DNA of 64,000 nucleotides. Source: Eledone cirrhosa (taxonomy: Eukaryota). The position numbers and the translations under genes are program-made. Each line of letters begins with the position of its first letter. Positions within the stretch are counted from its first letter, which is position 1. This document shows, one piece after another, positions 27,141 to 56,003 of the stretch. The stretch spans positions 1 to 64,000 of the forward strand of contig CAXHJY010001673.1 of assembly GCA_964016885.1 (NCBI GenBank). The letters run 5' to 3'. Below the pieces are notes generated by a model. The model was not told the origin of the DNA. It saw only the letters and a program-made list of their open reading frames with translations, and did not search any database.

Positions 27141-28524
27141 TATAGTGTGTATAATGTATCTATAACAAAGTATTCGAAATTCGTATACACTAAGAATAAG
27201 TTTATACTTAGAGAAGAATAGATACCCAATAGTATGTATATATTATATTTATAACAAACTATATGAATATGTTATAGAGTGATAATAACAATCCAAGTAG
27301 AGAAATGTTTATACTAAGAGAAGAATGCATACAAAAGAGTGTATGTAAATTATGTGTATAACAAAGTATATAAAATGTTGAACTTAGCTCACGGACACCA
27401 AATACTAGAGTTCACTGACTCCCATGGATCAGCTGATCCTAGATTACACTACAGATTGAGTCATTTGAGGATTATAAAAGGACTGACATGCTTGGCTTAA
27501 TAAAACAGGGACATAGGTGGATGGTCAATGCAAATGTGATGGATGTTGTATTGGTTAATGTTTTTAACCACAGGTTAGGCTTTTGAATGAAGACCTATTA
27601 CTGGAGTGAATCCAGCCGTGGCGTTCACGTGTTTTCAGAAAACGTTTATCCAATATAGCCTTCATAGCATTTATATCTAACATATGGACCATATATAATT
27701 TATATATGAAACAAAAACACATGAAGCAATTTTAGTTATATTAGGTTCGCTCTTGGAGGAAATGGAATGCGTATGTATATATATATATATATATATATAT
27801 ATATATATATATATTCATACGTACACACACACATACATACATATATATATATGACTTAGCTATGGTAAATATACATATATATATATATATATATATATAT
27901 ATATATATATATATATATATATATATGTACATACATATATATATATGTATGTTTACTATAGGTAGTAAACATCAGAAATTATTTTATTTATTTACAATGA
28001 AGCGGGACTCACAAGCACAACATGTGTTTATAGTATCTCGAAACATTCTTACACGGGACAGCGAACACAGGAAGTGATATGATAAATGGTATTACTCTAT
28101 TACTATGTAGACACAGACAGACACACACACACACACACAGACACACAGACACACACACAGACACACAGATACACATATATATATATATATGTAAGAGTGC
28201 TCTGTTCTGATTTAGATGTCGAGTTTCTGATTGGTATGGTGTCTGGCGATTTAGTTATGGTTTTCTTTCCTAAATTCTCTGCTGATCGTAAGGTTAAGCG
28301 TGAACCTAATAATCTCATATTTGTAGTGCCTCTCTGTTTTTGTTCCCGTCTAAGATTTACCTATATATATATATATTTATATATATATATATATGCAAAA
28401 GTTTTATTTTAAATTGTTGGGTTACAACAAGTAAATATTTTATAACTGATATAAAGCACTCAACAAGTTTTGGAGTAGATATACGATATTAAACGAATGG
28501 AAACTATATTTATAAAACCATATT

Positions 28525-28590
28525 TATTTCATTATACATATTTCGGGGATACCATATTAAAAATATGGCATGCCTTCTTCAGATAAAATA
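28525..28590 (-). ncRNA. Type I hammerhead ribozyme (inverted twin of 28723-28788)
   Basis: Reverse complement of the + strand ribozyme listed next. Confidence 0.75.
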
Positions 28591-28722
28591 CAATATATAA
28601 ACAGTTTTATAAATAATTTTGACGTACCATAAATATTGAGCAACCGTTATGTAGGAAGCCGGTTTGGTAGTCAAAATTATTTATAGTACGTCAAAATTAT
28701 TTATAAAACTGTTTATATATTG

Positions 28723-28788
28723 TATTTTATCTGAAGAAGGCATGCCATATTTTTAATATGGTATCCCCGAAATATGTATAATGAAATA
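28723..28788 (+). ncRNA. Type I hammerhead ribozyme, Penelope-type minimal stem III
   Basis: uauuuuau CUGAAGA aggc-augccauauu-uuu-aauaugguau-cccc GAAA UAUGUA UA^ augaaaua. Stem I is 8 bp (1 GU). Predicted cleavage is after 28780. Confidence 0.75.
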
Positions 28789-29565
28789 AATATGGTTTTA
28801 TAAATATAGTTTCCATTCGTTTAATATCGTATATATATATATATATATATATATATATATATATATATATATATATATATATATATATATATATATATAT
28901 ATATATATAGTTAAATCTTAGACGGGAACAAAAACAGAGAGGCAGTACAAATATGAGTTTATTAGGTTCACGCTTAGCCACTACGGATATTACCTTCCAG
29001 TGTTCCACCATGATATATATATATATATATATATATATATATATATATATATATATATATATATATATATATATATGTATGTATATATATATATATATAT
29101 ATATATTATATGTATATATTATATATATATATATATATATATATATATATATATATATATATATATATATATATATATATATATATATATATATACAGAG
29201 GGGCAGTAAGAGTGCGTGGTGGTATGTGTATACCTAACGTCCATTAGACTGCAATTGTTGTCTGCTCAGCTGAAACGATCGAAAAGCAATATTTCAATGT
29301 TGAACATATATATATATATATATATATATATATATATATATATATATATATATATATATATTATACATATATATATTTTATACATACACACATATCTATC
29401 TATCTATCTATCTATCTATCTATCTATCTATCTATCTATCTATCTATCAATATATATATATATATATAATGGTGGAACACTGGAAGGTAATATCCGTAGT
29501 GGTAGAACACTCAGTCCACGGGATGAGTTAGGTAGAAGTGGTTACACAACAGTTAGTTCACCATA

Positions 29566-29605
29566 CCGAGAACAATTGTTTCACCTTAGCGGATCCTCAG
29601 TTCGG
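29566..29605 (-). ncRNA. Type I hammerhead ribozyme (inverted twin)
   Basis: ccgaa CUGAGGA uccgcuaaggu GAAA CAAUUG UU^ cucgg, with one A-C mismatch in stem I next to the core. Confidence 0.7.
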
Positions 29606-29609
29606 AATT

Positions 29610-29649
29610 CCGAGCTGAGGATCCGCTAAGGTGAAACAATTGTTCTCGG
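29610..29649 (+). ncRNA. Minimal type I hammerhead ribozyme
   Basis: ccgag CUGAGGA u-cc-gcuaa-gg-u GAAA CAAUUG UU^ cucgg. Perfect 5-bp stem I and palindromic stem III ACAAUUGU. Predicted cleavage is after 29644. Confidence 0.85.
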
Positions 29650-54237: not shown

Positions 54238-54410
54238 AATAATTGTTTCTACTTTAGGCACAAGGCCAGCAATTAACCAGTGCATTACTGGTACTTTATT
54301 TTATCGATCCCGTAAGGATGACAGGCAAAGTCAACCTCGGCGGTATTTGAACTCAGATCGTAAAGGGACGTAACTATGCTGGAAAGCATGGCGTCCGACT
54401 CTCTACCAAT
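54238..54410 (-). mobile_element. SINE S1 terminating the 162-bp array
   Basis: Contains ATTTGAACTCAG (reverse B box), which is absent from the array units. Confidence 0.88.
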
Positions 54411-55027
54411 GGCGTGTTTCTTTTCCTGTTTTTGGGACACCCAAGAAAAAGATTCGAGAGGTTTCTGCCCAAAATAACATCTTCATGATTACATCCATCT
54501 TCCCCAATTATTAAACCCTGAATTCCTAATGGACTCTCATTCTAGGTTTAAACACAACTAATTTCTTCCGGGGAGAGAGAGAGGCAGTGTGGGTGATATA
54601 TATATATATATATATATATATATATATATATATAGAGAGAGAGAGAGATAGAGAGAGAGAAAATGAGAGAGAGAGGAGTGAGACAGAGAGAGCGATAGAG
54701 GGACGTAGTTCCACTTCACAGGAGGTTTCCCGTGGATTTTAAAGATAGAGGCATAAAGTCATATCATGAAGGCAAATGAAATGAAGTTTCTTGCTCAATA
54801 ACACAACAGGTCACCTACAACCTTATCATCTTCAGTCCAACACACTCTCATTTGGTGGTGTCTAGAATTTGAAAGAATATATATATTCATTTTATTAAGG
54901 TTAAATATTGAGACTTGTTATTCTGGTGTAACTCCAGAGTAACAAAACTCACTATTTAGTCTTAATAAAACTAATATTTAAACTCTACTTCGGTATTGAA
55001 TACTCTTTTCACTCAGCCGTCAACTAC

Positions 55028-55252
55028 ATATTGTTATACTTTGGGAGGGTCATGTTGCCAATAAGAAACACACGCACCAGTTGCTTTCACTCCAATTTCA
55101 AATAAAGAATCTTGCTAAACAAATTCAGAAACGAAATATAATATTTCGTTTCTGAATTTGTTTAGCAAGATTCTTTATTTGAAATTGGAGTGAAAGCAAC
55201 TGGTGCGTGTGTTTCTTATTGGCAACATGACCCTCCCAAAGTATAACAATAT
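55028..55252. repeat. Palindrome with 112-bp arms around a 1-nt centre (55140)
   Basis: The arms are reverse complements with no mismatch seen by eye. The right end runs into (TA)n, and a related fragment lies at ~63857-63900. Confidence 0.92.
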
Positions 55253-55456
55253 ATATATATATATATATATATATATATATATATATATATATATATATAT
55301 ATATATATATATATTACAAAGAGGGTGTGGTAAGATATATACCAGGTGGACCAGTTCGGATCTAGCTGTCGAAACGGCTGGAACTCAGACGTCGAGGTCC
55401 TGACTCTTTTCTTATATATATATATATATATATATAAGAAAAGAGTCAGGACCTCG

Positions 55457-55691
55457 AAAAGAAAATCCTGACAAATTTTTCCCAGTGAAAAATAGTTTAA
55501 TTAGGAATAAATAATAGTAATAAGTATTGGTTAGTATTCAGTTTTAGTTTTAAGTTTTTACCGGTTGCGCATTTCTAATGCGGTAAAAATTTAAAACTAA
55601 AACTGAATACTAACCAATACTTATTACTAATTTTTACTTATTCCTAATTAAACTATTTTTCACTGGGAAAAATTTGTCAGCATTTTCTTTT
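55457..55691. repeat. Imperfect long inverted repeat (~107-bp arms)
   Basis: AAAAGAAAATCCTGACAAATTTTTCCCAGTGAAAAATAGTTTAATTAGGAATAA... is mirrored at ~55581-55691. Confidence 0.88.
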
Positions 55692-55923
55692 ACTAATATA
55701 TCACAACTCGTGTGTTACACCTCTATTCTTTTAAATATATATATATATACACGTATATATATAACGAAGGAAAATTGGTAAAACCAAAGTACTCACCAGG
55801 TGGACCATAACGCACCAAAGGACTCGTTCCTATATATATATATATATATATATATATATATATATATATATGAGAGACGTAAAACAAGAAAATTATAAAA
55901 TTAACTTACTTACTAAAATATCA

Positions 55924-56003
55924 CTTCCAACTAATTAGTTTCTGGAATGGAATAAATATATTTTCCGAAGAAAACACAGAAAATCATTCCGTCGTCAGGG
56001 AAG
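55924..56003 (-). ncRNA. Type I hammerhead ribozyme with an extended stem II
   Basis: cuucc CUGACGA c-ggaaug...uguguuuuc-UUCG-gaaaauaua...cauucc-a GAAA CUAAUUAG UU^ ggaag. It has a 5-bp stem I, a UUCG-capped stem II and a palindromic stem III ACUAAUUAGU. Confidence 0.82.

Follow-up and report, generated by a model that had tools for sequence, protein, structure and literature searches.

The short unique islands that lie within or beside TA microsatellites in a 64,000-nucleotide stretch of Eledone cirrhosa DNA (contig CAXHJY010001673.1, positions 1 to 64,000; the window) are very probably best explained as the 3' ends of Penelope-like elements (PLEs), together with two passengers lacking an open reading frame (ORF), inserted into (TA)n. 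The hammerhead motifs that these islands carry are real and not the product of chance, and self-cleavage is predicted at their UH sites.

Motifs were identified with a type I descriptor comprising, in order, CUGANGA, stem II, GAAA, stem III, the UH site and stem I. In line with the minimal type I hammerheads listed in an earlier note, made from the sequence alone, it returned eight motifs with a stem I of at least 3 bp and six with at least 5 bp (28723+, 28525-, 29610+, 30567-, 33727- and 55924-), stem I being just 3 bp long in 50001+ and 10442-. Four sets of 60 block shuffles (di- or trinucleotide, on the whole window or with microsatellites masked) gave means of 0.08 - 0.12, with a maximum of 1, at the lower setting and of 0 - 0.017 at the higher one. 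A strict stem II descriptor yields 33727 alone, and the relaxed version, with which the shuffle controls were run, tolerates a mismatched basal pair in stem II. The view that these are chance matches in AT-rich DNA was refuted by the shuffles and retains practically no probability, for although the descriptor is permissive towards stem II and the Rfam models give no score, eight motifs stand against about 0.1 expected in the window and 49 against 0 - 3 in an evenly spaced 600 kb sample of the genome, and the motifs hold a fixed place in element families. Rfam, proposed earlier as a check, did not recover the motifs: no hammerhead exceeded the model threshold among the matches listed for the window (150 of 741), in any of the 42 rows, all listed, for 28400-29900, or at the gathering score in three loci, and its output was microsatellite and hairpin miRNA noise. 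Two further cores, 50186- and 50259+, were rejected as hammerheads, having neither GAAA nor stems and forming part of another repeat. The output of an inverted-repeat finder was dominated by TA runs. Stem III is short and often palindromic, as had been noted, with an exact palindrome in 23/49 sampled motifs; in five window motifs it has no calculated stability as a hairpin alone and a self-duplex of -2.2 to -9.0 kcal/mol, F50001 having a weak hairpin of its own (-1.4 kcal/mol), and the lowest-energy structure calculated for the 29610 monomer differs from the hammerhead.

The islands of four families (F28723, F29610, F33727 and F30567) are, judged by sequence, the 3' ends (pseudo-LTRs, pLTRs) of 5'-truncated PLEs, and their motifs would place the first three in the Hydra clade and F30567 in the Neptune clade. 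F28723 forms a head-to-head pair, the left arm of which (28393..28635, minus strand; hammerhead 28525-28590, predicted cut after 28533) has a tail of about 88 nt (28393-28480) that marks the distal end site, and the right arm of which (28655..28832, plus strand; hammerhead 28723-28788, predicted cut after 28780) ends at the proximal site, running into (TA)n. F29610 is present as a solo piece of tail preceding a TA run (28978..29010, plus strand; 100% identity across 33 nt with tails in L151, L050, L045 and L041) and as a head-to-head pair, with a left arm (29469..29610, minus strand) bearing a tail of about 65 nt and a right arm (29607..29682, plus strand; hammerhead 29610-29649, predicted cut after 29644) ending at the proximal site. 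The left-arm hammerhead (29566-29605), previously listed as well formed, has an A.C mismatch in place of the innermost stem I pair. The 5'-truncated 3' ends of F30567 (30452..30635, minus strand; hammerhead 30567-30605, predicted cut after 30572) and F33727 (33585..33845, minus strand; hammerhead 33727-33793, predicted cut after 33735) complete the set, the latter with (TA)n on either side. Stem sequences had been described as unrelated between families, which is not true of all, 28723 and 33727 having stem I and stem III in common; the cuts placed earlier after 28780, 29644 and 50042 are also those of the descriptor.

The suspected origin from PLEs was confirmed in that all four families are joined to RT/GIY-YIG ORFs elsewhere in the genome, the hammerhead keeping a fixed position 0.2 - 1.7 kb downstream of the ORF; as stated before, the window itself has none (tblastn with PLE peptides, no match at E 0.01). 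The F33727 UTR adjoins EN in 30/30 EN loci and the ORF in L052 has RWR, DKT and CxCX5C, a full-length frame being absent among 150 hits, the longest of which has 554 aa. F29610 is joined to an ORF in sense in 3/15 loci, and an ORF with the CxCX5C linker lies about 200 nt upstream in L046, L040 and L049. Two of the four long F28723 pairs examined (L173 and L175) are joined to an RT/EN ORF, which has both RWR and DKT, and open frames of 706 - 771 aa occur in 6/150 hits to the F28723 EN. All three families have, by motifs and tblastn, a single ORF in which RT is followed by a C-terminal GIY-YIG, with a CxCX5C linker; the RWK-like (RWR) and DKT motifs are present in F33727 and F28723, the F29610 ORF having been seen without its N-terminus. 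A Pfam search of three Hydra PLE pieces gave no match. F30567 lies intact 380 - 470 nt behind a Neptune-type EN in 19/20 loci; a 728-aa ORF matches RVT_1 (27.8 bits, slightly below the cut-off of 29.6) and GIY-YIG (27.9, above 22.6), and the family has a DKG motif, a CX4CxxC linker, within the CX2-5CxxC pattern of the clade, and a C-terminal CCHH EN; open frames of 775 - 781 aa were found in 11/150 Neptune hits. A homologue search returned 10 relatives with 34 - 41% identity.

The earlier note had taken all the islands to be non-autonomous, solo pLTRs or retrozymes of several kinds moved in trans. The window's want of an ORF, the lack of an ORF or parent for F55924 and F50001 and the predominance of short copies in every family are all in its favour, but in four families the sequence carries on upstream into RT/EN ORFs and is truncated to a variable extent at its 5' end. 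For these, which appear to be truncated protein-coding PLEs, the proposal is already refuted, and as an account of every island it is very improbable; it stands for F55924 and F50001, the only families that seem to fit a non-autonomous element.

The reading of the four families as PLE 3' ends accords with Hydra PLEs (Craig et al. 2021, PMC8557442; including Hydra-1_Obim of Octopus bimaculoides), which likewise have a C-terminal GIY-YIG, RWK-like (RWR) and DKT motifs, a CxCX5C linker, insertion into (TA)n and a 3' hammerhead. In the hammerheads published for them, stem II likewise has a U.U at its base, stem III is short and nearly palindromic, and the sites are UU, UA or UC. The comparison was made by eye against the Hydra-1_Obim text in the supplement, and the hammerhead listed for Hydra-1_oBim differs from that of any window family. 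Whereas Hydra PLEs are "generally <3 kb", two families here have 3' UTRs of 1.5 - 1.7 kb and elements exceeding 3.5 kb, and abundance is very high, with some 60,000 first-look EN candidates. F30567 shares with Neptune PLEs the DKG motif, a CX4CxxC linker, the C-terminal CCHH-type EN, the 3' hammerhead and a microsatellite bias; it shows no essential difference, and the family is young, several of its frames being uninterrupted. The minimal PLE hammerheads of Cervera and de la Pena (2014, PMC4209133) are also type I, located in pLTRs and endowed with a palindromic stem III, and are mostly single on truncated copies, with opposite-strand pairs 100 - 700 bp apart, but most motifs here have a stem III of 3 - 5 bp and lack the conserved G10.1-C11.1 pair (found in 3/49).

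The preference for (TA)n that had been proposed was upheld, at least 8 nt of TA following 219/242 3' ends against 8.9% in the control, and 43/47 against 18% in the evenly spaced genome samples; by family the figures were 35/38 for F28723, 54/56 for F29610 and 29/29 for F33727. In all six families the 3' ends are fixed and lie in (TA)n, the 5' ends are scattered and head-to-head pairs occur, and the insertion marks of PLEs (5' truncation, an inverted 5' copy and a tail on one end) are present. In 72/78 head-to-head pairs one arm ends at the fixed proximal site and the other at the fixed distal site, a few pairs being proximal/proximal. The end sites mostly overlap TA by 4 - 9 nt (eight sites, one with 2 nt only, the distal sites of four families standing outside the score). 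Neither the end-site pairing counts nor the TA overlap was found in the literature surveyed, a search that left subscription papers and bioRxiv supplements mostly outside its range. Paired hammerheads cannot be mutual dimer partners because they lie on opposite strands, and the predicted fold of the pairs is a long hairpin that would bury the motif.

F55924 (55868..56350, minus strand; hammerhead 55924-56003, predicted cut after 55929) appears to be a head-to-tail retrozyme with a unit of about 521 bp, of which the window holds 483 nt, circularly permuted. Its hammerheads are 520 - 524 nt apart in 9/20 loci, the longest stop-free frame has 59 codons, and copies have two fixed ends, scattered starts and lengths of up to 1291 nt; compensatory changes occur in 4/14 stem pairs. 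Animal non-LTR retrozymes (Cervera and de la Pena 2020, PMC7229834; Li et al. 2026) are similarly non-coding tandem units of low GC, each carrying a single type I hammerhead, and co-occur with PLEs. They measure 150 - 450 nt, in contrast to the 521 nt of F55924, which has a long stem II, arrays of only 0.5 - 2.5 units in the loci seen and the PLE marks of two fixed 3' ends, head-to-head pairs and (TA)n. No real match was found between F55924 and seven loci of the four ORF-bearing families, in a genome with many more families, and no parent PLE of F55924 or F50001 among the families compared. No RNA source appeared among the matches listed for sequencing runs matching 55880-56340 (four rows of unstated kind).

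It has been proposed that pLTR-derived units undergo local amplification (Li et al. 2026, 10.64898/2026.07.22.740005), and TA-rich sites are liable to slippage. On these grounds the F55924 arrays might be ascribed to local tandem duplication or unequal crossover of single inserted units at the DNA level and the proximal ends to later loss of the DNA from an internal TATA to the (TA)n flank, the hammerheads being no longer used, and some pairs are indeed proximal/proximal. However, copies of 1.5 - 2.5 units are dispersed and begin at scattered 5' points but keep fixed 3' ends, a deletion that followed insertion would not leave exactly one tail in 72/78 pairs, and stem changes between subfamilies are compensatory, so that this explanation is improbable.

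The second ORF-less element, F50001, is about 430 bp long and explains most of the motifs described earlier as decayed: 29785-, 33130-, 46480- and 50604+ belong with 50001+ to one family. It forms a small head-to-head pair at 29693..29870 (minus arm 29693-29834, with the 5' strand of stem I lost; plus arm 29828-29870, decayed) and another at 49968..50119, in which the minus arm (49968-50005) has no core and the plus arm (50001-50119; hammerhead 50001-50045, predicted cut after 50042), thought to be well formed, has lost half of stem I at the inversion junction, retaining 3 bp of the 6 bp of intact copies. Minus-strand copies lie at 33040..33160, with a mutated core, and 46382..46505, truncated within the core, and a sister subfamily is represented at 50557..50662 by a minus-strand piece of tail and a plus-strand copy clipped within the core. 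Same-strand pairs were seen in 5/72 loci, those inspected being separate insertions, and no circular or tandem (head-to-tail) form was found in the 72 loci. F50001 is more SINE-like on account of its fixed 5' end and lack of a tandem. An apparent longer parent in L202 was rejected as a chimera, 24/25 loci with the upstream piece stopping short of the hammerhead. The supposedly decayed 63928+ (63928..63975, plus strand) is rather a member of a further, intact family, clipped at its 5' side exactly at the core, stem I having 5 bp in intact copies (L170, L101 and L200), and the small hammerhead at 10442..10486 (minus strand; stem I 3 bp, 3' end in (TA)n) is loosely placed as to family, with two partial matches among the loci.

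Insertion into (TA)n is likely to proceed by target-primed reverse transcription, PLE enzymes probably copying F55924 and F50001 as well. The GIY-YIG domain would nick both (TA)n strands, and the two nicked 3' ends would anneal to UA-rich sites 60 - 120 nt apart near the RNA's 3' terminus, each priming its own cDNA; synthesis that stops early would leave a short island, and two cDNAs joined together would make a head-to-head pair with its tail on a single arm. From the literature, the hammerhead may free element RNA from read-through or tandem transcripts, cutting for the most part in dimers held by the palindromic stem III, or with the help of protein, and F55924 monomers may be ligated into circles that RT copies for 0.5 - 2.5 rounds. 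On the other side, minimal PLE hammerheads cleave poorly in vitro, 8/9 Xenopus retrozyme dimers did not cleave, and the one PLE that has been purified could insert without its hammerhead (Frangieh et al. 2024, PMC11167929). The majority of single genomic copies, and head-to-head pairs especially, are likely to be inert passengers. In the purified PLE, Poseidon of Anolis carolinensis, too, the tail is delimited by two internal start sites, and the target is AT-rich, with both strands cut and extended. Its start site is not homologous to the target, which argues against the annealing step, and is the same on both strands, whereas most end sites here coincide in part with TA and each arm of a pair has a site of its own.

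Head-to-head pairs might instead arise by self-priming or fold-back on one cDNA or antisense template, as proposed for rotifer Penelope with its palindromes at inverted junctions (Arkhipova 2013), and short palindromes do underlie some junctions here (29607-29610). Such a copy should, however, show the same 3' end again and not one at another fixed site, the two arms of many pairs begin at widely differing 5' positions, and the purified PLE extends both strands; fold-back is rather unlikely as an alternative to priming from both nicked target strands. Under that two-strand priming, it is put forward tentatively, as somewhat short of an even prospect, that one RNA bridges both cut DNA ends in a telomerase-like manner, each nicked TA strand priming cDNA from its own internal UA site to give an inverted pLTR with a one-sided tail, that the same machinery copies circular retrozyme RNAs by rolling circle, and that this genome is more densely loaded with hammerheads than any other animal in the literature compared.

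The sampled density is about one motif per 12 kb, with more than 20 types, and the genome-wide total is estimated at roughly 1.6 - 3.5 x 10^5 motifs, or about a quarter of a million. Hydra PLEs with such hammerheads and a (TA)n preference, including an octopus family, were already known (Craig 2021, supplement); what is new is the scale, a retrozyme with PLE-type insertion marks and an end-site pattern relevant to mechanism. With an element type already known, the contribution is mainly one of annotation: much of this genome's seemingly "unique" sequence between TA repeats is PLE tail, and the main text of a recent Octopus vulgaris repeat annotation makes no mention of ribozymes. The origin of the inverted pLTR and tail has been named as an open question (Craig 2021, PMC8557442; Frangieh 2024, PMC11167929), and the six families provide a countable rule, one site for each arm, and an annealing model that can be put to the test. 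The case for PLEs as movers of animal retrozymes has so far been made from co-occurrence and kinship; F55924 appears to carry the PLE insertion signature on the retrozyme itself.

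A descriptor scan, in which a mismatched pair at the stem II base was tolerated because a strict version recovered only 33727 in the window, found eight type I hammerheads whose stem I has 3 bp or more, six of them having 5 bp or more. Block-shuffled versions of the window gave means of about 0.1 and at most 0.017 respectively. The hammerhead coordinates and predicted cut sites of the earlier note were borne out. Two motifs described there as well-formed are less so: the innermost stem I pair of 29566- is a mismatch and only half of stem I is left in 50001+. The claim that stems are unrelated between families fails for 28723 and 33727, which have the same stems I and III, and 29785-, 33130-, 46480-, 50604+ and 50001+ all belong to one family. 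The Rfam hammerhead models scored none of the window motifs among the matches listed for the window. As the note had stated, no Penelope-like element (PLE) ORF was found there.

An unbiased sample of 60 evenly spaced 10-kb stretches from 17 chromosomes (599,800 bases, small contigs lying outside it) contained 49 hammerhead motifs of roughly 22 types, spread over 26 stretches, as against 0-1 and 0-3 after shuffling. TA repeats lay within 250 nt downstream of 43 of the 47 scorable motifs, compared with 18% of control places, which upholds the proposed (TA)n association, and upstream of 26 of the 49. The density of 82 motifs per Mb (bootstrap 52-117) makes the window ordinary for this genome and, extrapolated from the chromosome sample to 3.0 Gb, corresponds to about 1.6-3.5 x 10^5 hammerheads; with other descriptors, about 5,000 have been reported from mussel, 9,000 from Xenopus and as many as 120,000 from axolotl (PMC4209133, PMC7229834). 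Different hammerhead families crowd a single TA tract at five loci (L185, L194, L289, L290, L314), with up to six motifs per 10 kb, at times nested end to end.

Every island is a member of a repeat family. For the six families named after their window positions, a first look yielded 2391 (F33727), 2351 (F50001), 1151 (F29610), 1005 (F28723), 200 (F30567) and 2280 (F55924) candidates, these being lower bounds rather than copy numbers, and copies are mostly 94-99% identical (40 candidates scored per family). In the six families together, 219 of 242 3' ends ran into TA of at least 8 nt, compared with 8.9% of control places, a figure biased by some queries having ended near TA.

Four families are the ends of protein-coding PLEs: ORF-linked copies were found for F33727, F29610, F28723 and F30567, so that the suggestion that all islands are non-autonomous falls for these and appears to hold for F55924 and F50001, for which no such copies were found in the loci examined. 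One F33727 copy (L052) comprises, in order, (TA)n, an inverted and a direct pseudo-LTR (pLTR), a broken ORF with RWR, DKT, RT and CxCX5C-GIY-YIG, the island and (TA)n, and the 3' UTR adjoins the endonuclease (EN) in 30/30 loci, which were chosen by EN. A second ORF of this kind lies about 200 nt upstream of F29610 in 3/15 loci, two further loci holding inverted ORF pieces, and a third is joined to F28723 through a 1.7-kb UTR in two of the four widely spaced pairs examined. Motifs of this type are reported to define the Hydra clade (Craig 2021, PMC8557442), in which the three families are placed by motif; Pfam gave no match to their ORF pieces. In 19/20 loci an intact F30567 follows a Neptune-type EN at a distance of 380-470 nt, and one copy has a 728-aa ORF with DKG, a GIY-YIG match and an RVT_1 match slightly below cut-off. 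Uninterrupted frames were found in 11/150 Neptune hits (775-781 aa) and 6/150 hits to the F28723 EN (706-771 aa, some possibly from a sister subfamily), and no uninterrupted full-length frame among 150 for F33727. Many F28723 frames stop at about 221-229 aa, at a run of C in L175 (1660-1680), reflecting a site prone to mutation or else a sequencing error in the homopolymer.

F55924, a putative retrozyme, has a 521-nt unit and a longest stop-free frame of 59 codons. Same-strand hammerheads lie 520-524 nt apart in 9/20 loci; across 22 loci 5' starts are scattered, the 3' ends occupy two places in the unit, separated by 116 nt, and the longest copy is 1291 nt. In the window the family is represented by 483 nt of the unit in permuted order. 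In seven sequences from three subfamilies 96.9% of base pairs are kept, with compensatory changes in 4/14, a level reached by 0/500 shuffles, although relatedness inflates this control. F50001, about 430 nt long, has a fixed 5' boundary (44/114 alignments begin within the first 20 nt, from overlapping loci picked by such queries), upstream of which copies share nothing except ends of other repeats, and neither an ORF nor a tandem arrangement was found in the loci examined. An apparent longer parent element proved to be a chimera. All F50001 subfamilies inspected (e.g. copies in L089 and L206) carry a TATAAAT-like word some 35 nt 5' of the core, which could be a promoter.

In each family the 3' ends favour two sites, separated by 60-120 nt. 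Of the 78 head-to-head pairs, 72 combined a proximal with a distal end, five had two proximal and one two distal ends, two of these six exceptions being mis-pairings of separate window insertions; independent choice would make at most half of the pairs mixed. The element's own TA at the eight main end sites with known continuation measures 9, 4 (or 2), 5, 2, 4 (or 2), 5, 4 and 4 nt. An overlap of 4 nt is reached by 19.6% of background positions, and a hand binomial for at least six of eight sites gives about 0.001 with the larger values, the sites being few and non-independent. The pair rule and this overlap suggest that both nicked TA strands would anneal to a single RNA, at two sites. In qualitative terms the one-sided tail was already known (Craig 2021, PMC8557442; Arkhipova 2013). 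This annealing is made less probable by work on a purified Anolis element, reported to start at a site that lacks homology to the target and does not differ between strands, and to insert without requiring the hammerhead (PMC11167929).

In five window motifs stem III has no predicted stability as a hairpin and predicted self-duplexes of -2.2 to -9.0 kcal/mol; that of F50001 forms a weak hairpin, with a self-duplex of -11 to -13 kcal/mol. An intact F50001 copy is predicted to fold as a hammerhead alone, the 29610 monomer to prefer another fold, and three head-to-head islands to form long hairpins (-234, -127 and -51 kcal/mol) with the hammerhead buried. Judging from these folds, tandem transcripts (F55924, pLTR-ORF-pLTR) could plausibly cleave as dimers, and inverted islands are unlikely to do so. 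Published PLE hammerheads are described as weak cleavers (Cervera 2014, PMC4209133), and 8/9 Xenopus dimers as inactive (Li 2026, 10.64898/2026.07.22.740005).

Another head-to-tail family ending in (TA)n, without a hammerhead (L208:1500-1720, L214:1530-1680, L204 ~2250-2470; 1105 candidates), holds a GC-rich structured motif with no Rfam match at E 5 except noise; a 67%-identical relative keeps several stems with changed sequence, and the motif is possibly another ribozyme or a cis element. Two inverted copies of a repeat at 50120-50310 carry CUGAUGA without GAAA or hammerhead stems, and relatives are tandem in L225, ending in (TA)n. One more abundant family, flanked by TA, with small hairpins and recurring in many loci, has ends at 46545-46695, 55320-55410 and 55765-55833, and these pieces lack a hammerhead. 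Additional long inverted repeats, lying between TA runs at 55040-55250, 55410-55700 and 63860-63925, probably represent further PLE families whose ends are joined head to head; in L313 the 55040 family recurs next to the 63928 hammerhead family. Tandem arrays at 52460-54330 and 11029-11617 (units of about 152 and 74 bp) are built of one SINE, presumably octopus-type. The whole 4.9-kb stretch of L174, flanks included, is a large palindrome that stems either from inverted duplication at the DNA level or from misassembly.

Hydra-1_Obim of Octopus bimaculoides combines (TA)n preference with a hammerhead (Craig 2021 supplement, PMC8557442), and the ORFs of this genome are putatively like it, a likeness that, with the layout of the genome and the presumed octopus-type SINE, would point to an octopus; published Hydra hammerheads (Craig 2021) also resemble those described here in the U.U at the stem II base, the short palindromic stem III and the UU/UA sites. 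Retrozymes have been proposed as PLE dependants (Cervera 2020, PMC7229834; Li 2026, 10.64898/2026.07.22.740005). The available main text of the Octopus vulgaris annotation mentions neither ribozyme, hammerhead nor Hydra. The original observation is confirmed and its interpretation right in part: the islands are new families of known elements, and the weight of the finding lies in its scale, in a retrozyme bearing the insertion marks of PLEs and in the end-site rule.
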